DNA of 64,000 nt, taken from positions 32,001 through 96,000 of IMG/VR virus record IMGVR_UViG_3300031949_000008; one strand, given 5' to 3'. The notes beneath the pieces are model-generated. The model was not told the DNA's origin and searched no databases. It saw nothing but the letters and a program-made list of their open reading frames with translations. Both the position numbers and the translations under genes were made by a program. Below, piece by piece: positions 31,452 to 47,365 of the stretch. Source of the stretch: a virus. Each line of letters starts with the position of its first letter. Position 1 is the stretch's first letter.

Positions 31452-33473
31452 TTAAAATAAGTCTACTGGCAATCGATGCATTGCAAAATATGTAAATGCA
31501 GTATTACCAAATATATAATCGTTTTCTAATGTTTTAGTATATGCTATTTTTATTGTATCACCTGGAACAAGAAATAATATAGAAAATGTATTTACTGTTT
31601 GGTATGGAGATGTTACAGCTTCATGTATGGGTCTATAAGTAGATTGATATAATATATTATTTTTATATACATGTAACCCCATAACAGGACGAGACGGAAA
31701 CCATTGTAATGATAAATAACATTGACTTATATCAGCAGAACATCCAGCAGAGGCTAGAGTTGCACTATAGCCGAATCCTTGTATACCAGATACTGAAGCA
31801 GCAGTCCAAGCTAAGCCAGTAGATGGATCAAGAGTCCAACGTTCATTATAATCTACGAAAGATGATGTCAACATAGTAGAAGTACCAAGATAATTAATAT
31901 CACCTTTTCGTAATACAGTAGCTGGTATTGTTTCAGCTTCTAAATAACATGTAGTATCACAGGTACAACCTGCTGATCCATATGTGGTATTATAACAAGT
32001 AACACAATCATATACATAACATGTAGCATTACAAGAACAAGCTGCATATCCATAACAGACATTATAACAAGTACAAGATCCTTTAATATATACATAACAT
32101 GTATTATTACAACTACAAGAGCTATCTCCATAACAGGCATTATTACAACTACAACTATATCCATAACATGCATTATTACATGTACAGTTTTCACCATAAC
32201 ATGTATTATTACATATACAACCACGCCTTCGACTTCTAAAATTTACAGTAACTACAAAAGGGCTAACTTCTGTATATAGTGTTCCTAATCCCCCTGAAAA
32301 AATATCTGTTGCACCGCATGTTTGTGTAGTATTAAAATCTGCATCATTTGCAGTTGGATAATCATCAATAGCTAAAAGATTACTTGCAGCACCAGAAACT
32401 GTCCATGTAACAATAGGAGCACCGGTCTGTAATTCTATTCTCCTAACCCCCATGTAGGTAGCATTTCCCCAATTGTCTGCAAACTTGAAGGCATAATAAC
32501 GATAGGAGGTTGTATTTGTGACTTCAATATATTTAGGATCAGAAGCATCAGCAACAGCATGCTGGTCAAAGGTAGATTGTGCTGTCGTTAGCTGTACCCA
32601 TGTACCATCATTCGCATAAACTAAATCAGCAAAATCACCAGAGGCAGTTGATCCCCAAAAAGTAAAATTTTCAACTCCACGATCTGTCTGTGTTCCGACG
32701 TGGTGGAAATTTTCATAATAAATTCGTTTTATAATTTTTTCTGAACCAAGGTCTATATGAAATCTTTGATTAGTCACAACCCCACTTTGAGACATCCAAG
32801 AATTATTTTCATAAGTTCCAGTCAAAGATTTTGCCGGATCTGTGGCAAAATAAGGCCAAGAATCTGTAGCATATTTAGTTGTGGCCTTAACATAGGTATC
32901 ATTATGAGCGGGTGGATATTGAGATCCTTGTCCTGGAGGTATTCCTGTAGCTGATGTCACACTACTTGTAAGTTGTGTTCCAGATGCTACCATTGTAAGT
33001 TGTCCTATAAGTAAATAATATCCAGATGCTAATGCTGTAAATATACCACTTGTATGATCATATTCATTTAAAGTATCATAATCCTCTGTATCAAAAACTA
33101 AAGTATTAGCAGATGCTCCTGCAGTTACTATCACAGTATTTGTACAGGCTGCTTTAAATCTAGACCAATAATTCTGACTCAATCGTAGCCAATTACTACC
33201 ACTATATTTAACTAATACACCTAATGTAGTATCAAATGCCAATGCTCCAGACATTGGACTAGTTAATGCAGCAATTTGAGTTGTTGTTCCCTCATATATT
33301 GCGCCAACAGAGCCAATCCTATGTTCACCAGATAACCCAACACTACCAGATGCTGGACTATAATGTTCTATATTATATGCATCTTCGATAGCAGAAAAAT
33401 TCTGTTGTAGGATATTGGGAATTTGTTTAATTTCATTTTCACTATTAGGGTATACCTTTTTCCATTGTCCCAT
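31452..33473 (-). CDS. tail-fibre-like protein: split C1q-like domain with inserted F5/8C-like domain and CxCxxxCY repeat array
   Basis: N-terminus is paralogous to the two upstream genes; FDTE.YD...EYD...G.FTA..SGYY; discoidin-like IDLG..K.I...YRYY..F...ELQ; Cys array. Confidence 0.75.
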   Translation of the reverse strand: MGQWKKVYPNSENEIKQIPNILQQNFSAIEDAYNIEHYSPASGSVGLSGEHRIGSVGAIYEGTTTQIAALTSPMSGALAFDTTLGVLVKYSGSNWLRLSQNYWSRFKAACTNTVIVTAGASANTLVFDTEDYDTLNEYDHTSGIFTALASGYYLLIGQLTMVASGTQLTSSVTSATGIPPGQGSQYPPAHNDTYVKATTKYATDSWPYFATDPAKSLTGTYENNSWMSQSGVVTNQRFHIDLGSEKIIKRIYYENFHHVGTQTDRGVENFTFWGSTASGDFADLVYANDGTWVQLTTAQSTFDQHAVADASDPKYIEVTNTTSYRYYAFKFADNWGNATYMGVRRIELQTGAPIVTWTVSGAASNLLAIDDYPTANDADFNTTQTCGATDIFSGGLGTLYTEVSPFVVTVNFRSRRRGCICNNTCYGENCTCNNACYGYSCSCNNACYGDSSCSCNNTCYVYIKGSCTCYNVCYGYAACSCNATCYVYDCVTCYNTTYGSAGCTCDTTCYLEAETIPATVLRKGDINYLGTSTMLTSSFVDYNERWTLDPSTGLAWTAASVSGIQGFGYSATLASAGCSADISQCYLSLQWFPSRPVMGLHVYKNNILYQSTYRPIHEAVTSPYQTVNTFSILFLVPGDTIKIAYTKTLENDYIFGNTAFTYFAMHRLPVDLF
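31944..32219 (-). repeat. eight tandem Cys-rich peptide repeats (CxCxxxCY)
   Basis: CICNNTCY, CTCNNACY, CSCNNACY, CSCNNTCY, CTCYNVCY, CSCNATCY, CVTCYNTTY, CTCDTTCY; 23 Cys in 92 aa. Confidence 0.97.
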
Positions 33474-33481
33474 AATAATTC

Positions 33482-34198
33482 CTAGCAGATTCTATAAATA
33501 TTAAGGAAGTTACGGTCTGAACCTCCTACTAATACAATACTTGTTGTACGTGAATGTGTTACTTTTACCTTTATTTTATCTCCAGCTATTAATGATAAAA
33601 TAGTTGTAATTCCCTGATACAATTCATCAGATGATAATGTGTAACAATATGTCACAGGAGATGTTTGTAATATATCACTAGAATTATATTGCTCAATTAA
33701 CATATTAATTGCAATAGCACCAATAGCAGTAAAACTTGCCTGTGCACGAATAAAATAGAATCCAGCAGCTTTAGCTATAAATGTATAGGTTGTATTATTA
33801 TATTCATCCAAATTATCTATAGATTCTGTATCAAATGGAATAAGTCCAGTTGTTCCAGCAGTAATAAGATAATCTGTACTACGATATGCTATTACTTCAC
33901 TATGATTCAATAAATTTATCTGTTGCCAAGTAGCTCCAGTAAATACATTAGATACTCCTAATACTGTATCTTGTGCCATCGCTCCTGTTGAAGGATCTGT
34001 AATAGCCGTGATACCAGATGTTGTAGTAGATGTTATAACAGGTAAAATACCAGGTTTATGTCGCCCAGATAATACAACAGTTAATCCATTATGCTCTAAT
34101 GCACTCATATCTTCAATAGCTGTCCAATTACCTACATAGATACTAGAAATATCTACAATAAATGAACCTGTGGTAGGTACTGTTTTACTCCATGCCAT
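33482..34198 (-). CDS. short tail-fibre-like protein with C1q-like domain (paralogue 2)
   Basis: MAW...NW.AIE...EH...SG.H..G; IPFDTE...F.A..AG.Y; L.AGDKI. Confidence 0.72.
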   Translation of the reverse strand: MAWSKTVPTTGSFIVDISSIYVGNWTAIEDMSALEHNGLTVVLSGRHKPGILPVITSTTTSGITAITDPSTGAMAQDTVLGVSNVFTGATWQQINLLNHSEVIAYRSTDYLITAGTTGLIPFDTESIDNLDEYNNTTYTFIAKAAGFYFIRAQASFTAIGAIAINMLIEQYNSSDILQTSPVTYCYTLSSDELYQGITTILSLIAGDKIKVKVTHSRTTSIVLVGGSDRNFLNIYRIC

Positions 34199-34205
34199 AA
34201 TAATC

Positions 34206-34919
34206 CTAAGATAATCTTATAATATGTAAACTTGCATTTACAAGTGTAATAGAAGATGTATGTTCCTGATAACCATATAGTTCAATTTCATCACCTGTTA
34301 CCAATGATAAAATATCTGCTACATCTACATTTCGCATGGCTGCACCATAAAGCACTGATTTACTCCATAGTATACTATTTAAACCTATTGCAATACCTTT
34401 TTGATAATTTAGTACTGTTTCATGAGGAAAACGAATACTAGCTTTAATAAAATAAATACCAGTATTAAGTACAGTAAAACGTCTTGTAGTAGAATTAAAT
34501 TCTGACAAGGTATCATAATATACTCCACTAGTAGCACCTGCTGATGTTAACTTTGTCCATGCACTAGTAGGAATTGTCTGTTCATTAAAAACTACTCGTA
34601 ATCTAGAATATTTATTAGCTGTAAGTTGTCCCCATCCAGTTGATCGATAAATTAAAGTTTGTCCATTGGTAGTATCGTAACCAATAGCTCCAGTTCCTGG
34701 TGATGTTGCTGTTGTAATAGTAGTATTAGTATCTACAAGAAGTATTCCAGATTTACCTGCAATATGTTGTCCACTGCCGCCGCTGGTAAAAGTTTGATGA
34801 TCAATATCCCACCAATCCTCAATAGCTTTCCAATTATTTCTAATTTGAGAATTAGGATCATCTGCAACTGATCCACTCACTGATGTTGAACCTAGCGGAA
34901 AATTAGCATTCCAAGTCAT
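34206..34919 (-). CDS. short tail-fibre-like protein with C1q-like domain (paralogue 1)
   Basis: MTW...NW.AIE...DH...SGQH..G; YDT..EF....RFTV..TGIY; L.TGDEIEL. Confidence 0.72.
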   Translation of the reverse strand: MTWNANFPLGSTSVSGSVADDPNSQIRNNWKAIEDWWDIDHQTFTSGGSGQHIAGKSGILLVDTNTTITTATSPGTGAIGYDTTNGQTLIYRSTGWGQLTANKYSRLRVVFNEQTIPTSAWTKLTSAGATSGVYYDTLSEFNSTTRRFTVLNTGIYFIKASIRFPHETVLNYQKGIAIGLNSILWSKSVLYGAAMRNVDVADILSLVTGDEIELYGYQEHTSSITLVNASLHIIRLS

Positions 34920-34922
34920 ATA

Positions 34923-35273
34923 TTAGTTCTCTAGATAATGTTTTATATTCTCTATTTTGTCTATATAAGGTTCAAAATGACCAAGCATTAAATTACATGC
35001 ACGATGTAAAAGTCCTCGTATTTTATTAGTATCATGGTCATGGTCTACAACAGCTGAAGAAAAGTCAAGAGGTTGTTCACAAATAGGGCATATCCCATTT
35101 TGAGATTTCCATATATTCATATACTCATCTTGTGTTAGACCATAGGAATATAATATTTTACGCCATTTGTTATAATCTTTATTTGCAACATACCATTTAC
35201 GAGAATTTTTGGTAATTTTATCTTTATGTTCTTTATAATATTGTTTTGCTTCTATTTTAGTTTTGAAGGGCAT
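34923..35273 (-). CDS. endonuclease VII-like homing endonuclease
   Basis: YGLT...QNGICPIC...VDHDH...IRGLLH..CN. Confidence 0.88.
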   Translation of the reverse strand: MPFKTKIEAKQYYKEHKDKITKNSRKWYVANKDYNKWRKILYSYGLTQDEYMNIWKSQNGICPICEQPLDFSSAVVDHDHDTNKIRGLLHRACNLMLGHFEPYIDKIENIKHYLEN

Positions 35274-36262
35274 TATTTATTTTCCCACCGTGTATTTAAT
35301 TTCATAAGTAAAGGAAATAATTTCTTAAATTCTTCACAAAAAGGACTCTTATGTCCATACTCACCAAAGGTGAGCTTTTGAACATAAGGGCATCCAGCCT
35401 GACAAAGAGTTACCCATTCACAGTCATGACATTCTGGTATATTCTTAGCACTCCATCTTTGAGGACATTTTAAATCACTCCAATGTATATGAGTATCTAT
35501 ATGTCCAATTACTGTATCTTTGTCAGGATTACAACTTCTTAATGTTCCATCAGGATCTATAATCACTAACCACCGACCACAGGAATACGGATTTTTCACA
35601 CTTTTCCAAGATGGGTATGTAGATTCCACAATCCAGTTAGGCCAGATTGGTCGTGGAGAGGCCAATAAAATTTCTAAAACTTCCTTCATTTGCTTTCCAT
35701 ATTCTTTTACATATTCAGAATCTTTTCCACCATCATATAATCTATTAATTCTCATTTGACAATGATGCTTAACTGCCAATTGAGCTAAATTAGTAATCCT
35801 TGGCATGTTAACTTTATTCAATACTATTGAAAGAGTACAACCACCACATATGGCTTTAATCTGGCAAATTTTATCTTCTATTCGTGCCAAACTGTCATAT
35901 GTGGGATTCAGTGCTATTTTTATTCTTCGCACTTTAAATACTTTTAAAATATCCTTTGTTAAAAGATCACCATTTGTATGAAATATATGACCATCAGGAG
36001 GTAGAGGTGTCACCCACCCTATGTTCGATTCCATCTGGTCTACTAGATATAATACAGTATCTACAACATTTAATGGTTCTCCACCAAGAAATGACACCCT
36101 GAGATGTTCAACTTTCTCTTCAATACAAATATTTTTAAGCCAATTAATTGCTTTATCTGCTATTTCTATAGACATATTTTCATTGACTGATGGATTGTAG
36201 CAACCATCACATCCCCTATGACATATATTTGTAGGAAAAAAGAATACCATTAAATTATGCAT
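35273..36262 (-). CDS. radical SAM/SPASM-domain protein 2
   Basis: CHRGCDGC, GGEPL, TNG.LL; SPASM Cys pattern CG...DG...C...CHDC.....CQAGC...C. Confidence 0.92.
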   Translation of the reverse strand: MHNLMVFFFPTNICHRGCDGCYNPSVNENMSIEIADKAINWLKNICIEEKVEHLRVSFLGGEPLNVVDTVLYLVDQMESNIGWVTPLPPDGHIFHTNGDLLTKDILKVFKVRRIKIALNPTYDSLARIEDKICQIKAICGGCTLSIVLNKVNMPRITNLAQLAVKHHCQMRINRLYDGGKDSEYVKEYGKQMKEVLEILLASPRPIWPNWIVESTYPSWKSVKNPYSCGRWLVIIDPDGTLRSCNPDKDTVIGHIDTHIHWSDLKCPQRWSAKNIPECHDCEWVTLCQAGCPYVQKLTFGEYGHKSPFCEEFKKLFPLLMKLNTRWENK

Positions 36263-36971
36263 TCTGTAACTTCTTTACCTGTTTTGCTGCATTATCCATT
36301 TCTTTTATCCAACGTTTAATTGTTTCTAAACTTCTATTAGGAACTGCACTCATATATGTTACTAAATCCATACTATTATAGATCTCACCATTAAATTCAA
36401 GTATAGCAAAATGATTATCATTATATTTAAAAGGATGGTTTATACTAATATATTTCTGAACATCTGGTGTATCACTTATATATCTTTTACCAATACACGG
36501 CATCTTATTCATATCGATAATATCATAGAAAAATAAAGATGCACTTGATTTAATAGGAACATAAGCATATAAATACTTTGCAATTCCAGATTTAAACATT
36601 AAATGAAGAAAATCTGACATTAAATAACGCACGTATTTTGTTTGTCGATATTCAGGATATACTAATTTAATATTCTCAAAATCATATTTACCATACCCAT
36701 CAGGATTGTCTAATATTTCCTGAGATAAAATACATCCAATACATATATCGTCTTTATACGCATAAATACAATATTTACGATCAATCTGACTTCCTTTATT
36801 AATATTTATAGAAGTAGTATGAGTTAAATATGTTGGATTATATTTAAAGAACTTTCTTGTGATCTCACGTTCTTCAAGAGAAATATCGTTTACATCTTTA
36901 TATAATATGTTAGGAAATATAATAATACCTTCTGAAGGTAGTAATCTATCCCAATTTTGCAAAAAATACAT
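36255..36971 (-). CDS. GNAT-fold-like protein
   Basis: YAYKDDICIG and VYPEYRQTK..R.L resemble GNAT motif A. Confidence 0.5.
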   Translation of the reverse strand: MYFLQNWDRLLPSEGIIIFPNILYKDVNDISLEEREITRKFFKYNPTYLTHTTSININKGSQIDRKYCIYAYKDDICIGCILSQEILDNPDGYGKYDFENIKLVYPEYRQTKYVRYLMSDFLHLMFKSGIAKYLYAYVPIKSSASLFFYDIIDMNKMPCIGKRYISDTPDVQKYISINHPFKYNDNHFAILEFNGEIYNSMDLVTYMSAVPNRSLETIKRWIKEMDNAAKQVKKLQNA

Positions 36972-37602
36972 GTCGTTTGTAGCCCTCTAGATCAGTAATT
37001 TCATCTGCTATAGGTGTCATATCGTCTATATAACTAACTGGTAGAATTCTATATAATTCAGATTTCTTCAATTCTTTAAAACAAAATTCCATAAATGTAT
37101 TTGTACATTCTTGTACTATTGCTTTATCTTTAGAAGCAATAGCTCGTTCCCAATGTGATTTATCTTTATAATTAAATAATACCTCTCGCGATATAGGTTC
37201 CCAATTATATATTACATACCACGAATCTGCAGAATCATATACAACATCATCTACTAAATAAGCCATTAAATATTCATTAGTTATATGACTATCATTAAAG
37301 AATGATTTCATATATCTTGTAGCTGCACCAACACTCATTATCTCAACTTTATCTTTTTTATAATGAATAATAGGTGCATCTCTATTAATTGTTAATTCAC
37401 CTTTAATATAACGACTAATCATATCTTCTGGTGAATAAGTTGCTAATTTTAAATTAGTATATTTATTAACTAATTCAGTCCAAGGAGCAATAGCTATAAA
37501 AAATAAATTATCTCCTTCAGCTTCTGGAATAGGGTACTTAATATTCTGACGTAAGCGTAGGGCATTTGCAAATGGGTAAATTCTAGGCATCAGTCGCCTC
37601 AT
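36946..37602 (-). CDS. hypothetical protein in the radical SAM cassette
   Basis: 218 aa, coupled to both neighbours; no motif recognised. Confidence 0.6.
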   Translation of the reverse strand: MRRLMPRIYPFANALRLRQNIKYPIPEAEGDNLFFIAIAPWTELVNKYTNLKLATYSPEDMISRYIKGELTINRDAPIIHYKKDKVEIMSVGAATRYMKSFFNDSHITNEYLMAYLVDDVVYDSADSWYVIYNWEPISREVLFNYKDKSHWERAIASKDKAIVQECTNTFMEFCFKELKKSELYRILPVSYIDDMTPIADEITDLEGYKRHVFFAKLG

Positions 37603-38396
37603 TATTTCTCATAGTCTATCTCCTCAATTACTATGATGCCTTCATCTGTTGGAAATGTAAACTGTGCAACCTCTAAACGACCTGGAACTAGACCACCTTC
37701 AAATACCAAAATATCTTTAATTTTACATGTATTTAATACATATGCATCATTTAATTCCTGTACAAGTTTGTCATTTTTACCTATTTTATATCTATCTTTA
37801 GCGCCATCAAGCATATATCTTATTCTATTTATAAAATTATTATACATAGATGGTATTTTATTAAAAGAACTTTGTTCTCTAATTTTTGTTATTGAACTTT
37901 TAATAACTTTAGGAAAGATTTCTATATCAACACTATTTCCTAATTTACTCACAGATTTTTGAAAAAATGATGCAATATCTGGTCCTTTGATAATAATATC
38001 ATTTCTACTAACAGTTGAATGTTGAAAAGCCATTGCACCCATTACTATAGCAGTAGCTCTTTGAATATAATCATCAGTCAATAAAAAATCTTTATATAAT
38101 GATACAAATGCAGCAGCTTTTTGAGCCATTGGTGCTCTCCAACTTTCGTCTATTTTAAATGCATTTTGATCTTCAACTATAAATCCTTTATCTATAATAT
38201 CTTGTACCATTTTTTGTGATTTCTTTTCAGGAGCAAAACCCAAACCTAGTGTTAAATGGTTTAACCAATCACGAGGTCGTCCTACAACTTTTACTACATA
38301 TGTTCCAGGAAATGTTTTAGCAAAATCTAATAATGCCTGATGTCCAGCATGTAGACCTTCAGAATGATTTGCTATCGGGACTATTACTCTACCCAT
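37602..38396 (-). CDS. divergent PanC-like (HxGH nucleotidyltransferase-fold) ligase
   Basis: GLHAGHQAL (HIGH motif), KGPD and IREQSS at positions matching PanC GEKD and LALSSRN. Confidence 0.6.
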   Translation of the reverse strand: MGRVIVPIANHSEGLHAGHQALLDFAKTFPGTYVVKVVGRPRDWLNHLTLGLGFAPEKKSQKMVQDIIDKGFIVEDQNAFKIDESWRAPMAQKAAAFVSLYKDFLLTDDYIQRATAIVMGAMAFQHSTVSRNDIIIKGPDIASFFQKSVSKLGNSVDIEIFPKVIKSSITKIREQSSFNKIPSMYNNFINRIRYMLDGAKDRYKIGKNDKLVQELNDAYVLNTCKIKDILVFEGGLVPGRLEVAQFTFPTDEGIIVIEEIDYEK

Positions 38397-38398
38397 AT

Positions 38399-39619
38399 TT
38401 AACCCCTTCGCTCCAGTGCAGAAACACGATTATTCAAATCTGATATTAATAATGCTATCGTTTCCAAAGAAATCGTGGGAGGATTGTCTATTACTGGACC
38501 TGTATAATGTTCAAAATTGCAAATACAGTTTTTATCTTGTGATATAGCCTTATCACCTATTTTTTCTTTATAATACATTGATATCTTTTTTTGTACTTCG
38601 ACATATTTACATAATCCTATATGAGGAATTTTTATATCACCAGTAAAGTCAAAGTTGACCGCATAACATCCCGAATTGCAAGGAGTATCTTTAAGCCTTG
38701 CACATCCATTACATTGATTATGAGAAAAATCTATAAATGACTGTCTAAATTCTGATCTAGTAATTCCATGATCAATATGACCAATACAAATTTCTTTATC
38801 TTGCCATGCTCGTTTATCGTCAAATTTGAAAAATCGGTGACAGGGCGCTATGGCTCCATCAATATCTATTCCAACATAATTACGTCCTCCACCACATGGA
38901 TATTTGCTATTATCAGCTGCCTGATATGATTTAAAATGTTCTATTTCAATAATATGACCATTATCACGATAAGTTTTTAATAGATCTACTATCTTATATC
39001 CTTGTTCTTCAAAGATTTTCCACTTTTCATCTGTCCATTTTGTCTCATAAACTGGAGAAAAGATTATAGAATTAAAACCAAAATCGATTAAGTACTTAAC
39101 ATCATTATATAAGTTATGAATGCTATCAGCCGTGAGGCCTAGTCTTGGTCTATAGAATGGCCATCTCTCTAATACTTTTTCCATATTTTTCATAATGGTA
39201 GCATGAGAACCCTGACCATCTTTAAATCTTCTATAGAAATCATGTGTTTCTTGTGTACCATCTAAACTGACTAAGAAAAATATCTTATGTTCATCTAAAA
39301 AATCAAATTTCTCTTCAGTCAATAATGTACCATTAGTCGTACCACCAAAAGTAACAGGCACCACAACCTGTACACTTTTCTCCTTTGCGTAAAGAACAAT
39401 CTTTTGTAATAATGACCACTCTAGTAATGGTTCGCCTCCCCAAAAACTAATTTCAACAGGATTAACTTTATCAGCATTTTTGAAAAGAAAATCTACAGCT
39501 TTATAAGCAATTTCTTCTGACATACGGCCAACTCTACATCCATATGTAAAACAGTATGAACATGCTAAGTTACAGTTTCTAGTTAAATTTAATGATGCAC
39601 GTGTTATTGGATAGTTCAT
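38399..39619 (-). CDS. radical SAM/SPASM peptide-maturase-like protein 1
   Basis: CNLACSYC, FWGGEPLL, TTNGTLL, SLDG...HD..R; SPASM CGGG...G...PCHRF...C..C......C..GC.A.N...C. Confidence 0.94.
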   Translation of the reverse strand: MNYPITRASLNLTRNCNLACSYCFTYGCRVGRMSEEIAYKAVDFLFKNADKVNPVEISFWGGEPLLEWSLLQKIVLYAKEKSVQVVVPVTFGGTTNGTLLTEEKFDFLDEHKIFFLVSLDGTQETHDFYRRFKDGQGSHATIMKNMEKVLERWPFYRPRLGLTADSIHNLYNDVKYLIDFGFNSIIFSPVYETKWTDEKWKIFEEQGYKIVDLLKTYRDNGHIIEIEHFKSYQAADNSKYPCGGGRNYVGIDIDGAIAPCHRFFKFDDKRAWQDKEICIGHIDHGITRSEFRQSFIDFSHNQCNGCARLKDTPCNSGCYAVNFDFTGDIKIPHIGLCKYVEVQKKISMYYKEKIGDKAISQDKNCICNFEHYTGPVIDNPPTISLETIALLISDLNNRVSALERRG

Positions 39620-41166
39620 ATAAGTTTTAAAAGTTCTTCCATAAATTGAGAATTTGTTCCTAATTGTTTTGATAAACTTTGTGGATCTCCTATACGTTGT
39701 AATACACCAAATGATGGATTAAGAGATGATGGTATCGGAGTCAGTGGTTGTATATCAGATACTTCTCCTAATGAAGTAGATGTTCCTGCTTGTTGTTCTA
39801 ATACTGATGTTAGTGATTGTGGTTGACTTCCTAATGTAGAAGATATTGCTGGTTGTATTTCATTAGTCTTATTAAAAAAAGCTGCTTGTTGTTCTGGAGT
39901 CATTTGCCAAAGTGGTGTTGTTATTTCTTTTGAAACATTATATGCAGCATAAGGATTTGGTGGGCTTTGATACCATCCTCCCTCCATATAAGGCCACATA
40001 TTTCCCTCAAGATCTGTCTGACGTTGGGCCTCTGCTGTATATTGATTATACCCACTTTCACTATAAGTAGGATTTGCTACTGTTTGATACCAAGGAATTT
40101 TAGATGTATTTTCACCAGATAAAGTAGGACTTCCTAATAACTGTTCATGAGTACCAGCTACGGTAGTTCCATAATTCAATGCTAATCCAGATTCATTCGT
40201 GGGAGATATTCCCTCATATGGATTTCCTGTCATAGACATTAATAGATTTGAAGGAGCTTCTTTTTGATATTGTTGTTCCCACCAAGATGAAGGCAGATTT
40301 GCAACATCACCAGTTCCATATGCTCCTGTATACATACTTGCTGGACTATATGAAGTCCATCCTTGAGAAGGATCATATACCCAACCAGTTGGCCCACCTC
40401 CTGTAGTTGCTCCACGAAGTTGAGACATAGCAGTCGTTTCTTCTCCTGTATACATGCCTGTTATTTGGCCATTATTACCTTCTACATACATATTATTCAT
40501 TTTTGCTATACCATAGATATCATAATCAGTATAGCCCTGTGCTTTTAATTGTTCAACTCGTTTAGCTCCACTATTGAATATAGGTGTTATTGCCTCACCA
40601 ATTCTTTTTTGCATTTTTTCATCTCTGCTACCAAATGCTTCAAATAACATAGCAATTCCAGGCCCGATTAAAGGAATATTACTAGCATAACTAGCATATG
40701 GATTAGTGTAATTTTGACCTGCTTCCATAGTGACCATAGATTGAAAAGGAGCGATTTGAGATGCAAGACCACTAAAAGTATTTCCCACTACATTTCCTAA
40801 TACCGTTCCTAATCCTTTACCAATCAAATTTCCAGCCATACTATTAACACCTGGGGATATAGTCGCTCCTGTTCCAAGGGCAGGTATATTTAATAGTCCA
40901 CCAAGAGTACTTGATAATTGTGAAGTCATCCAAGGAAGAACAGGATTATCTCCCATTATTCCACCAGCTGATTTAAGTCCTGCTGATCCCAGTAGTCCTA
41001 ATATACCAGAAAGAGAGAGTTCAGGTGTAGTTCCACCTAAACCCAATTGAGATGCTAGAGCTTGTATTCCTGTACTACCAGCGTTCTGTCCAACATTAGA
41101 TAGAACACTATTTAAATAACTTGAAAGTGATGGTTGTGCTGTCGGAGTTGTATCTGTTATTGCCAT
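39616..41166 (-). CDS. putative internal virion protein
   Basis: 516 aa, G/S/L/Q-rich low-complexity sequence. Confidence 0.5.
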   Translation of the reverse strand: MAITDTTPTAQPSLSSYLNSVLSNVGQNAGSTGIQALASQLGLGGTTPELSLSGILGLLGSAGLKSAGGIMGDNPVLPWMTSQLSSTLGGLLNIPALGTGATISPGVNSMAGNLIGKGLGTVLGNVVGNTFSGLASQIAPFQSMVTMEAGQNYTNPYASYASNIPLIGPGIAMLFEAFGSRDEKMQKRIGEAITPIFNSGAKRVEQLKAQGYTDYDIYGIAKMNNMYVEGNNGQITGMYTGEETTAMSQLRGATTGGGPTGWVYDPSQGWTSYSPASMYTGAYGTGDVANLPSSWWEQQYQKEAPSNLLMSMTGNPYEGISPTNESGLALNYGTTVAGTHEQLLGSPTLSGENTSKIPWYQTVANPTYSESGYNQYTAEAQRQTDLEGNMWPYMEGGWYQSPPNPYAAYNVSKEITTPLWQMTPEQQAAFFNKTNEIQPAISSTLGSQPQSLTSVLEQQAGTSTSLGEVSDIQPLTPIPSSLNPSFGVLQRIGDPQSLSKQLGTNSQFMEELLKLI

Positions 41167-41181
41167 ATTATTTTATAATTT

Positions 41182-41658
41182 CTAAATCCACAGTGATCCT
41201 ACTATTGTATAAACTCGTCCTTGTATTGAATAAGGAGAATAAGCATCTAGTGTCCAACTTGCTTTCGTTGATGTGGTTATAATATCTCCATTTTTATTGT
41301 ATCTTGTACCTCCACCAGTAGCACAACTAATTGTTCCAGAAGCTTGATAACTACCAATACGATCATTCTTTTCAACCGGTATCCAGCATAACAAATCAGA
41401 ATTTAATCCTGCGTTAAGAGAATATGCTGGACTTTCTCCTATAAAAATAAAGTTAGTGCCATCATCTCTAAATATTTTTAATTTAAATACAGTTACATTT
41501 GCAACTATATAGACAGAAAATGATTTCATTATACCTCTACATTGAGAAATAGAAGCACTATAAGCATCTATAGCTGTAAATGGGCCTCCGGCTTCTCCAC
41601 GGACTATAGGATCAGAACCAAATAATTGATAAGACATATTATATTTCTGTCCATTCAA
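41182..41658 (-). CDS. putative virion beta-sandwich protein
   Basis: K.KIFR..G......GES...I.V...D.IG.Y pattern; tail module position. Confidence 0.5.
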   Translation of the reverse strand: MNGQKYNMSYQLFGSDPIVRGEAGGPFTAIDAYSASISQCRGIMKSFSVYIVANVTVFKLKIFRDDGTNFIFIGESPAYSLNAGLNSDLLCWIPVEKNDRIGSYQASGTISCATGGGTRYNKNGDIITTSTKASWTLDAYSPYSIQGRVYTIVGSLWI

Positions 41659-45422: not shown

Positions 45423-47365
45423 AAATATTATCCAGTTACTCCGGTCAATAAGGCATGCTTCTCTTCATTATGGAACTCAAAGCCGATTTCGCAAATATAC
45501 TGATCTTTTACGAAATCGTCTCCTGGATGCTGAATATCAGCTTCCATCGTTACGTCTCTATTCTGAAGATAGCGATAAACCATCTCGTCGAGTTTCAACG
45601 CAAACGCATAGCCACCATACAAAGAAGTATTCGACACAGAACCAGCGTTTTCTAGCATATAGTCCTTGATCAAATTCAAGGTTCCATGAGGAGAGAGATA
45701 CTGAGCAATTGCAATTCCGTAGGTTTTATCCTTGGAATACATCTGCAATTTGCCCTGCGCCCATTGACTAATTACGGATATGATAAGAGGAGAAGCCAAT
45801 AAATACACTTCGTCTCCACCAAATCTCGTCACTGTCCTAATGAAAGCCTCAAAATCGGATTCAGTAAGAATTCCGCCAACTGCTGTCACGTTTGTGCTGA
45901 TAAAATAATCAGCTCCACCTGACGTTCGCCGTGCGTGAGAGATAGTTGCATCTAACCCACTCGACGTGTCTTCTAACCGCTCGCCATATAAAGCCATACG
46001 CTCGATGTCTCGCATTAACTCAATACCCTTTACCTTCCGCTCATACGCACGATAATTTCCGCCGTACAATTCAGAATTTAACATCGAATTAGTCACCTCA
46101 ACGGATTTTCTAATAGTCTGTAGATAATTGAAAACACGAGCAGCTTTGCGACTCTTGGACACTAATGCAGTAGAAGCAGAACCTTCCTCAAATGCCGCAC
46201 CGATGATCACCATAGTAGAAGAATTTGCTGCACTAGCTGCAGTTGTTGCGCCATACGCTCTAATAGCCGTAACCGCACATGCTGCAGTTGCTGTAATAAG
46301 AATAACTTCACCAGTAGCAGGAATCTTAACGAGATCATACTTGTTAAAGTAGTTACCTTCGTTAGTTGCCACAGTAAAATTAGTCGCAGCAGATGTAGCA
46401 GAAGCTGCCAAAGATGACCAAGATGGATTTAAGTCGTTTTCAGGCCATTCGATTGTAGTATTAATAGCAACTCGTTTATTAAGACGAGAAACTAGAACAT
46501 ACAAAGGCAATCTGTTACTTTAAGACCTATTTCTAGGCGGATAGTTATTTCTAACTATCTCTACATATCACTATGTAGTTCGGACTATATCATCAACGAA
46601 GTATTAAAACTTTGTTGGCTTCCCGTATAGTCTCTGAGGGAGATGGTGGATTATGTTTTAAATCTAGTAATTCTTGAATTAACTTATTAAGTATTTCATC
46701 TTGATCAAGTGGTTTCCAATCAGGATCAACATTCCATCCCGTCCATCGTGATCCTTGAATCTTTTTAAAACCACCTTTATAACCAAGACTATCTCTATAT
46801 TCAATTAATTCTAAGAACTTATGTACTTGATCTCGCTTATTGTAAATGTAAGGTAAAATTCCTAAAAGAACTTTCTTACAATTTCCTTTTCCTTGTACTA
46901 CAATTGAGATTGCCCATTTTCTATTAGGTCTATTATCTTTATAAGTTCTATAATAAAACCCAATCTTATTTTCTTTATAAATTATACTAACTTTCTCAAT
47001 CATACGAGGATCAGTATTATCAATTTTAATTCTACAATAAAAGCCCTTGGTTACTAATAATTCACCAGTTTTTTTACTTAGATTCTTTCTGGTACACCAA
47101 TTAGCTTCTAATGATCCTTCTCCATCAATAATACCTGCGAGCCAAGACCACCTTATCTTCCTGCTGATTGTCTCTTCGTCCATACTTTATTCCTCCTTGG
47201 GAAATGGATATGAGATATTCCAGCATCAGGGATGCTTTATAGCCACCCATTTTACTAAGCGGCTTCTGGCTGTAAAAGATAAATTTTATCAGCCATGTCA
47301 ACGACTCTCAAGTTCGACAATATATTCTGAGAACCAGTTGCATTCGTTACCATTGTAGCTGCCAT
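44747..47365 (-). CDS. major capsid protein (SU10/DUF5309-like), spliced; exons 47365-47258, 46507-45455, 44773-44747; 395 aa
   Basis: Exon 1 MAATMVTN...IYLLQPEAA joins PLYVL; G.AFEEG, NYLQ, RDIE..ALYG, SPHG.L, E.G.E patterns; follows the scaffold gene. Confidence 0.9.
44774..45454 (-). mobile_element. group I intron 2 in the major capsid gene
   Basis: P3 CCTCTC/GAGAGG, P AAATCGGGAA, Q AATTCCGAG, R GTAGAGACTGA, S GCTACAGTCCG, P2/P9/P9.1/P9.2 hairpins, terminal G 44774; IGS GTGC pairs with exon GCAT. Confidence 0.85.
46508..47257 (-). mobile_element. group I intron 1 in the major capsid gene
   Basis: P1 GCCGCT/GGTGGC with U.G at the splice site, P TGATGCTGGAA, Q AATCAGCAGG, R TCAGAGACTATA, S GATATAGTCCG, terminal G 46508; in-frame TAG TAA directly after exon 1. 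Confidence 0.93.
46593..47183 (-). CDS. intron-encoded LAGLIDADG homing endonuclease (intron 1)
   Basis: WLAGIIDGEGS; AAGGAGG RBS inside the intron. Confidence 0.88.
   Translation of the reverse strand: MDEETISRKIRWSWLAGIIDGEGSLEANWCTRKNLSKKTGELLVTKGFYCRIKIDNTDPRMIEKVSIIYKENKIGFYYRTYKDNRPNRKWAISIVVQGKGNCKKVLLGILPYIYNKRDQVHKFLELIEYRDSLGYKGGFKKIQGSRWTGWNVDPDWKPLDQDEILNKLIQELLDLKHNPPSPSETIREANKVLILR

Follow-up and report, generated by a model that had tools for sequence, protein, structure and literature searches.

Can a phage apply the chemistry of peptide maturation to its own tail? The question is raised by a 64,000-nucleotide stretch of viral DNA (positions 32,001 to 96,000 of the IMG/VR virus record IMGVR_UViG_3300031949_000008), hereafter the window, which is part of a 110-kb record estimated to be 98% complete. 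The window encodes two radical S-adenosylmethionine (SAM) enzymes with SPASM domains, rSAM1 (38399..39619, 406 aa) and rSAM2 (35273..36262, 329 aa), and, downstream of them, a 673-aa tail fiber (31452..33473) that has an array of Cys-rich repeats built into it (31944..32219). Coordinates are window positions unless a locus is named, and all genes of this region lie on the (-) strand. The original prediction, made from the sequence alone, was that the enzymes act on the repeats as they would on the core of a peptide made on the ribosome and modified after translation (RiPP). We find that co-occurrence gives strong support to a link between enzyme and repeat. Like dozens of others, this uncultured phage carries the two close together, and it probably modifies its host-binding fiber chemically.

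Enzyme and repeat co-occur in both directions

For the forward search, the rSAM1 family alignment was used to collect 19 viral loci, and a hit was scored when a Cys-repeat open reading frame (ORF) lay on the same strand within 10 kb. Fifteen of the 19 viral loci with an rSAM1 relative held such an ORF. The exceptions were two loci in which the enzyme gene lies within about 850 bp of the contig start, one with only 28% identity, and one real exception (L009).

For the reverse search, a DNA pattern for CxCNxxCYGYxxCxC was used, which gave 57 metagenome loci with a median length of about 3.4 kb; the same pattern had no match in 185,579 prokaryote genomes. An rSAM1-family gene was present in 43 of the 57 loci when stop codons were read through. 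The control consisted of 113 viral-contig loci from a looser DNA pattern, mostly antisense or out-of-frame artifacts in repetitive genes, and none of these had the enzyme. All five genuine repeat proteins in the loose-pattern set have a radical SAM neighbor. The difference between 43/57 and 0/113 has a Fisher p of 2e-28, a value that overstates the case as the loci are not phylogenetically independent. Co-occurrence had been set in advance as the check on the original prediction, and the radical SAM homologs are indeed tied to Cys-repeat proteins whichever of the two is taken as the starting point.

The pairing persists when the carrier protein changes. Furthermore, each of the two radical SAM enzymes is linked to the repeats in its own right, because more distant phages keep beside them only rSAM1, or only rSAM2 together with a GNAT-fold acyltransferase that is also encoded in the window. 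The gene of rSAM2 lies directly beside repeat proteins in two loci (L119 and L187); in L187 it is accompanied by GNAT, with rSAM1 not seen, and a further locus (L190) has GNAT. The two-way co-occurrence, the change of carrier and the loci with rSAM2 and GNAT support the proposal that a Cys-repeat core within a structural protein is what the enzymes act on.

The repeat is a portable module

A pool of 535 units, drawn from 47 proteins, has the consensus [A/S/G]-C-[S/T]-C-[N/D]-x-[T/A]-C-[Y/H]-G-[Y/Q]-x(1-2), and its period is 11-12 residues. The three Cys and the Y/H at +7 are given by the pattern with which the units were collected. At the other positions, N/D was found in 85% of units at +3, T/A/S in 83% at +5 and G in 63% at +8, and 58% have a Tyr two residues past the Y/H that follows the third Cys (C3). 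Each Cys of the unit is followed at +3 by a conserved residue: N/D after C1, T/A/S after C2 and Y/Q/E after C3. The cross-links that CrpC makes in CrpA have this C-x-x-acceptor spacing.

Arrays range from 3 to about 47 units. They are carried by C1q fibers, by proteins like central tail fiber J (phrog_31, E 1e-35 to 1e-54), by tail- or baseplate-like proteins, and by small stand-alone repeat proteins encoded directly upstream of the enzyme gene. The repeat is a portable module, its carrier differing by lineage.

The stand-alone repeat proteins (L013, L015, L119; L017, L019, L021, L201) have one of two conserved C-terminal caps, ...CxC[D/N]xMKYAPGxW or ...AYRYPWT, and in both the last unit is without the third Cys, as in the enzyme tail motif described below. 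Distant rSAM1 relatives in metagenome-assembled genomes and in one Phycisphaerales chromosome adjoin very large CExx or CQxx repeat proteins. In the chromosome (CP070678; L203, 3130-5115), the repeat protein has 662 aa and 144 Cys, with CExx repeats after a Tat-type-like N-terminal stretch, and its gene lies upstream of that for an rSAM1 relative (34% identical), at a distance of about 3 kb. The pair has the look of the phage pairing in a cellular and apparently secreted form.

The array is nested in a C1q-like domain of the third fiber paralog

The 673-aa fiber (P0001) is the last of three consecutive fiber genes. Its C1q-like domain is split by an insert of about 450 residues, which consists of a discoidin-like domain followed by the array. 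The C1q score (22.4 bits) is just under the cut-off of 23.7, and the homologs P0129, P0132 and P0139 carry PF00386. The array comprises 92 aa (residues 419-510), is built of units of the form CxC[N/D]xxCY and holds 23 of the 27 Cys of the protein. Eight CxCxxxCY-type repeats had been described; eight units are present, of which seven are canonical and one is degenerate (CVTCYNTTY). Across 13 homologs of 37-71% identity the Cys columns are invariant and the number of units varies; the array is therefore not a product of chance. A basic motif, RSRRRG (32220..32237), stands immediately ahead of the first repeat. It is conserved, with R413 nearly invariant, and is a possible recognition element. 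An AlphaFold model of the whole fiber has a core that is all beta, with a pLDDT (predicted local distance difference test) score of 70-88.

The discoidin/DUF5000-like domain (residues about 184-352; 32418..32924) matches Pfam DUF5000 at 22 bits and F5_F8_type_C at 17 bits, both below cut-off. It is absent from 12 aligned fiber homologs, two of which have unrelated inserts at the same place, and copies of 50-63% identity occur in other viral contigs (L003-L005).

The other two fibers, both without Cys repeats, are a 237-aa protein that is C1q/BclA-C-like (P0008, 34206..34919) and a 238-aa protein with a C1q domain (P0009, 33482..34198; Pfam C1q 23.9 bits against a cut-off of 23.7). Pairwise alignment confirmed that the three are paralogs: P0008 and P0009 are 30% identical over their full length, and P0009 and P0001 are 36% identical over the first 160 aa, with the last strands also in common.

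rSAM1 is related to thioether maturases and has no leader-binding domain

Membership of rSAM1 in the radical SAM superfamily is clear from Pfam (PF04055, E 2e-15, 57.7 bits against a cut-off of 29.5), and its CxxxCxxC cluster motif CNLACSYC (C16/C20/C23) occupies residues 16-23 (39551..39574). Its best matches in NCBIfam are mostly maturases of Cys-rich peptides or thioether-forming enzymes. The PapB-family equivalog model NF047865 leads with 261.3 bits, residues 8-331 covering positions 5-329 of the 330-position model; a nif11-like maturase ranks second (193 bits), and QhpD (TIGR03906, 164 bits), SCIFF (160), CcpM (159) and the CXXX-repeat maturase (148.7) also score. By these scores rSAM1 is best described as a relative, not an ortholog, of the PapB family.

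The nearest solved structure is that of CteB (5WGG, E 1e-32), with rSAM1 residues 9-339 aligned to CteB residues 100-437. The alignment starts past the N-terminal domain of CteB and rSAM1 therefore has no leader-binding domain; with the cluster motif already at residue 16, the RiPP recognition element (RRE) of a canonical RiPP maturase is absent. The Pfam SPASM score of rSAM1 is 18 bits, below the cut-off of 21.5, but residues 242-337 align to the SPASM region of CteB, and C242, C260 and C318 are invariant across the family. The second enzyme, rSAM2, is more divergent. It has the motif CHRGCDGC (C14/C18/C21; 36200-36223) and scores 26.5 bits against PF04055 (below 29.5), 29.2 bits against Fer4_12 (cut-off 22) and 36.5 bits against the SPASM model TIGR04085 (cut-off 27), which places it in the superfamily; it also has weak matches to PapB (49 bits) and DynA (47 bits). 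Judged from these profiles and alignments, both enzymes belong to the SPASM subgroup, and the labels that they had been given are borne out by Radical_SAM, TIGR04085 and the CteB alignment.

Downstream of its SPASM region rSAM1 has a motif, CICNFEHY (residues 365-372; 38504..38527), that resembles the repeat itself. Roughly 120 rSAM1 homologs were found in the protein database, and a tail motif of the form C-x-C-[Y/N]-[N/F]-[T/A]-x-Y-x-G, like a repeat unit minus its third Cys, is present in 96 of 111 relatives. A heptad-like end follows it (38411-38452 in rSAM1). In L009, the clear repeat-less locus, the enzyme is without the tail motif. We read the motif as a sign that enzyme and repeat have co-evolved and speculate that it may stand in for recognition by leader and RRE. 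Three features are particular to the locus in the window: the array nested in a loop of the putative C1q tip, the full five-gene cassette, and the repeat-like tail of the enzyme.

Some rSAM1 relatives are much longer. One (P0086) contains an intein domain (PF14890), and two others have ORFs of 700-790 aa (L180, 3-2123; L189, 1-2382). The L007/L055 contig shows one phage with two tandem copies of rSAM1 (L055, 1546-2763 and 2872-4128).

Proposed mechanism and alternative explanations

From gene content, family relations and co-occurrence we infer the substrate, the chemistry and the function of the system. We think it rather probable that the phage encodes a system for the post-translational modification of tail proteins in which rSAM1 acts on the array, a thioether ladder being the likeliest outcome. 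rSAM1 would act in the cytoplasm of the infected cell, before or during fiber assembly, on the CxC[N/D]x[T/A]CYG[Y/Q] units in the tip domain of the third fiber. The likeliest product would be a ladder of ranthionine-type cross-links between Cys and side-chain carbons, which would lock the array at the host-binding end of the fiber into a rigid structure that reducing conditions leave closed. Since rSAM1 has no RRE and the fiber has no leader, recognition would not be by these two; it could instead be through the repeat itself, through the conserved basic stretch ahead of it, or through the repeat-like tail of the enzyme. rSAM2, GNAT and a PanC-fold ligase encoded beside them would probably carry out further steps on this substrate, for example acylation, ligation or cross-linking of a second type.

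We would put a little short of an even chance on the wider proposition that many uncultured phages mature their virions with several enzymes, an RRE-less and tail-guided one building a thioether ladder on whichever tail protein carries the repeats, and rSAM2, GNAT and the ligase decorating it further. If true, this would give phages receptor-binding structures beyond the reach of disulfide chemistry in reducing habitats, and virus particles would for the first time be known to carry RiPP-type chemistry.

Several observations weigh against the proposed modification of the array by rSAM1. rSAM1 falls below the curated cut-off of every named family, including PapB (261 against 340 bits), the CXXX-repeat maturase TIGR04115 (148.7 against 350) and the CrpC family TIGR04463 (66.5 bits, and 39 bits for rSAM2, against 525), and its reaction therefore cannot be transferred by orthology. 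It is without the RRE that PapB, CteB, QhpD and CrpC use. PapB needs an acidic acceptor, and the conserved candidate acceptor in the repeats is more often Asn than Asp. The model of the whole fiber has a mean pLDDT of 50, and of about 35 in the array, and so gives no support from geometry. Many of the loci come from related phages, so that the counts do not represent independent events. Finally, L009 keeps the enzyme without a repeat protein, and no radical SAM gene is seen in an 8-kb locus (L158) that encodes a repeat protein with 115 Cys.

Could the array be modified by a different chemistry? Aromatic residues are among the most conserved positions of the unit, namely the Y/H after C3, which the search pattern required, and the Tyr found two residues on. 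In addition, rSAM1 matches cyclophane families (YhhB 71 bits, FxsB 60, GrrM/OscB 54), rSAM2 matches DynA about as well as PapB, and an anaerobic sulfatase maturase is among the structural relatives of rSAM1. These data would fit a Tyr-centered C-C or C-O cyclophane, conversion of Cys to formylglycine, or S- or C-methylation, and the type may differ between rSAM1 and rSAM2. However, the best matches of rSAM1 are by a wide margin to enzymes that form Cys-to-carbon thioethers, and a modification of Tyr only would leave the three Cys of each unit without a role. We consider a chemistry other than thioether formation unlikely, though it is the strongest of the alternatives.

It is less probable still that the array is an unmodified structural or metal-binding module (with zinc, iron or disulfides), that the cassette makes a small molecule or modifies another protein, and that their adjacency reflects ordinary gene packing. 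The CxC motif is typical of metal-binding proteins, the PanC-fold ligase and GNAT have folds of small-molecule enzymes, and no radical SAM gene is seen with the repeat protein of L158. On the other hand, rSAM1 belongs to peptide-modifying families, and an unmodified array would leave unexplained both the two-way pairing across unrelated carriers and the repeat-like motif in the enzyme. This motif, which is followed by a heptad segment in most family members, could also mean that rSAM1 modifies its own C-terminal tail, or that it is an assembly chaperone that docks through its tail and coiled-coil end and does not itself catalyze cross-linking of the array. Catalysis is favored by the full retention of the radical SAM motif and the SPASM cysteines, and a tail has one or two motifs against 3 to about 47 units in the partner proteins, so that the arrays are the likelier main substrate. 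A self-acting enzyme or a chaperone is, in our view, very improbable.

Relation to known systems

It is established that SPASM enzymes form thioether cross-links in Cys-rich repeats, both in peptides (by PapB and CteB) and in the cellular proteins QhpC and CrpA (PMC12373016; PMC13692751). PapB with PapA (freyrasin) and CteB with CteA (SCIFF) resemble the present system in that a radical SAM enzyme with a SPASM domain meets repeated Cys-rich motifs. They differ from it in having an RRE, a leader peptide, a protease and an exporter, and the target here lies within a virion protein of 673 aa, as an internal loop.

The nearest precedents are two cellular pairs, CrpC with CrpA and QhpD with QhpC. 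CrpC of Methanococcus voltae installs ranthionine links on CrpA at C-x-x-Q/D motifs (Dieter et al. 2026, PMC13692751). Here too the partner of the SPASM enzyme is a repeat-rich, Cys-rich protein and not a peptide, and the spacing from Cys to acceptor equals that from C1 to N/D in the phage repeat. In contrast to rSAM1, CrpC is a member of TIGR04463, has an RRE and makes use of CrpA's N-terminal domain; CrpA itself is a cellular protein with a 17-residue repeat, and the paper that describes it makes no mention of phages (PMC13692751). QhpD, which matures QhpC of quinohemoprotein amine dehydrogenase, is a thioether-forming SPASM enzyme whose target is a structural subunit within a larger assembly. 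It differs in that rSAM1 reaches 164 bits against a QhpD cut-off of 453, and in its use of an RRE and a leader, its three defined cross-links and its non-viral origin. The CXXX-repeat maturases (TIGR04115) are likewise radical SAM/SPASM enzymes, and in the targets paired with them a Cys recurs every few residues, but instead of a plain CXXX the phage unit is CxC[N/D]xxCYGY, which spans 11-12 residues and has three Cys. To our knowledge, no CXXX-repeat maturase has been characterized biochemically.

The enzymatic cross-links so far known in virions are mainly self-catalyzed bonds, for example the isopeptide links of capsids. Our literature searches returned no paper in which phage tail proteins or virions are modified by radical SAM enzymes; one cyanophage paper merely lists a radical SAM "antibiotic synthesis" gene. 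The earlier claim that the system has no described equivalent has to be given up for cells, where the SPASM-cross-linked proteins QhpC and CrpA are known (PMC13692751); for phages and virions our searches gave no case.

If true, a dedicated radical SAM pathway that works on host-binding tail proteins would add a new layer to phage biology. It would show how adsorption organs are stabilized or diversified, perhaps above all in habitats that are anoxic and reducing. It would extend the very small set of whole proteins with RiPP-type thioethers, which now comprises QhpC and CrpA (PMC13692751). It would also provide cross-linking enzymes that depend on no leader and have a target motif both short and portable, useful in protein engineering, in which PapB-type enzymes are already exploited (PMC12373016).

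Genomic setting and the other genes of the cassette

The region lies within the virion module: a match to a major head protein is found at 45428-46510, and tail or virion matches lie to either side. From 41166 to 31452, ten genes follow one another with abutting or overlapping ends, in the order 516-aa protein, rSAM1, 264-aa protein, 218-aa protein, 238-aa protein, rSAM2, endonuclease VII and the three fiber paralogs. The five tightly packed genes from rSAM1 to rSAM2, followed by an endonuclease gene and three fibers, are as originally reported.

Listing the ORFs of at least 20 aa in 34900-41200 revealed no small Cys-rich ORF in or beside the cassette, in agreement with the earlier remark that a free-standing precursor is absent. 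Scans with Pfam, PHROGs and NCBIfam assigned none of the ten proteins to a protease or transporter family, and no separate RRE protein was detected in the cassette in Pfam and NCBIfam profile scans. Judged by predicted gene content, the locus lacks the short leader-core precursor and the protease or exporter that define a canonical RiPP cluster. The GenBank phage collection gave no DNA match, no protein match to the fiber, and rSAM1 relatives only at <32% identity. Promoter and terminator scans gave results at or below the level of shuffled sequence.

The 264-aa protein (37602..38396) is a predicted PanC-fold adenylate-forming ligase with an HxGH motif in which H19 is invariant and H16 nearly so. 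It matches no family in Pfam, PHROGs or NCBIfam. Its family profile matches PanC structures at E 7e-5, and its AlphaFold model (pLDDT 94) finds only PanC, that is, pantothenate synthetases, among the top 50 listed Foldseek matches (E 1e-9 to 1e-7, template modeling (TM) score 0.5-0.66). The label "PanC-like" is thus right at the level of the fold: the protein shares with PanC the two-domain fold, the HxGH motif and a similar length, but is only 11-16% identical to it and has no match to the Pfam or NCBIfam PanC families. Its own family is tiny, with 57 representatives among 1.8 billion proteins.

The 238-aa protein (36255..36971) is the predicted GNAT-fold acyltransferase. Its Pfam Acetyltransf_1 score of 18.5 bits is below the cut-off; atlas features (0.96) and matches to GNAT structures (TM 0.5-0.8) bear out the assignment. 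Between these two genes lies that of the 218-aa protein (36946..37602), which has no family in Pfam, PHROGs or NCBIfam and is the least conserved member of the cassette, being found among related loci in L014 and L174 only. The order rSAM1, PanC-like, GNAT, rSAM2 is kept in L006, L007, L011/L012, L014, L147 and L178. The PanC-fold ligase and GNAT are frequent but optional companions of the repeats.

The endonuclease VII gene (34923..35273; Pfam Endonuclease_7, E 9e-19) separates the cassette from the fibers. It is probably a recent mobile insertion that lies outside the system, as it has no match in the syntenic relatives L006, L007 and L014. Directly upstream of rSAM1, and overlapping its start, is the gene for the 516-aa protein (39616-41166), which is rich in Gly, Ser, Thr, Gln and Pro and has no match in Pfam, PHROGs or NCBIfam.

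In-frame stop codons in a lineage of relatives

In one group of metagenome loci (L144, L151, L155, L157, L159, L162, L169, L173, L176, L186, L188, L191, L194, L197 and L198), both the repeat gene and the rSAM1 gene contain many in-frame TAA codons and fewer TAG codons. In the rSAM1 gene of L176, TAA is the commonest codon (35/471) and GCN codons are absent. The dinucleotide GC is almost missing from this lineage, with an observed/expected ratio of 0.0-0.17 in the six loci checked. An artifact in which GC is read out as TA was considered and rejected because TAT still aligns with Tyr. The TAA codons fall at positions that are Ala or Gly in the family, with a log-odds score of +14.5 bits for Ala and -33 for Ser, the next best residue. 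These relatives are candidates for a recoding of stop to Ala in which the usual Ala codons would have been abandoned.

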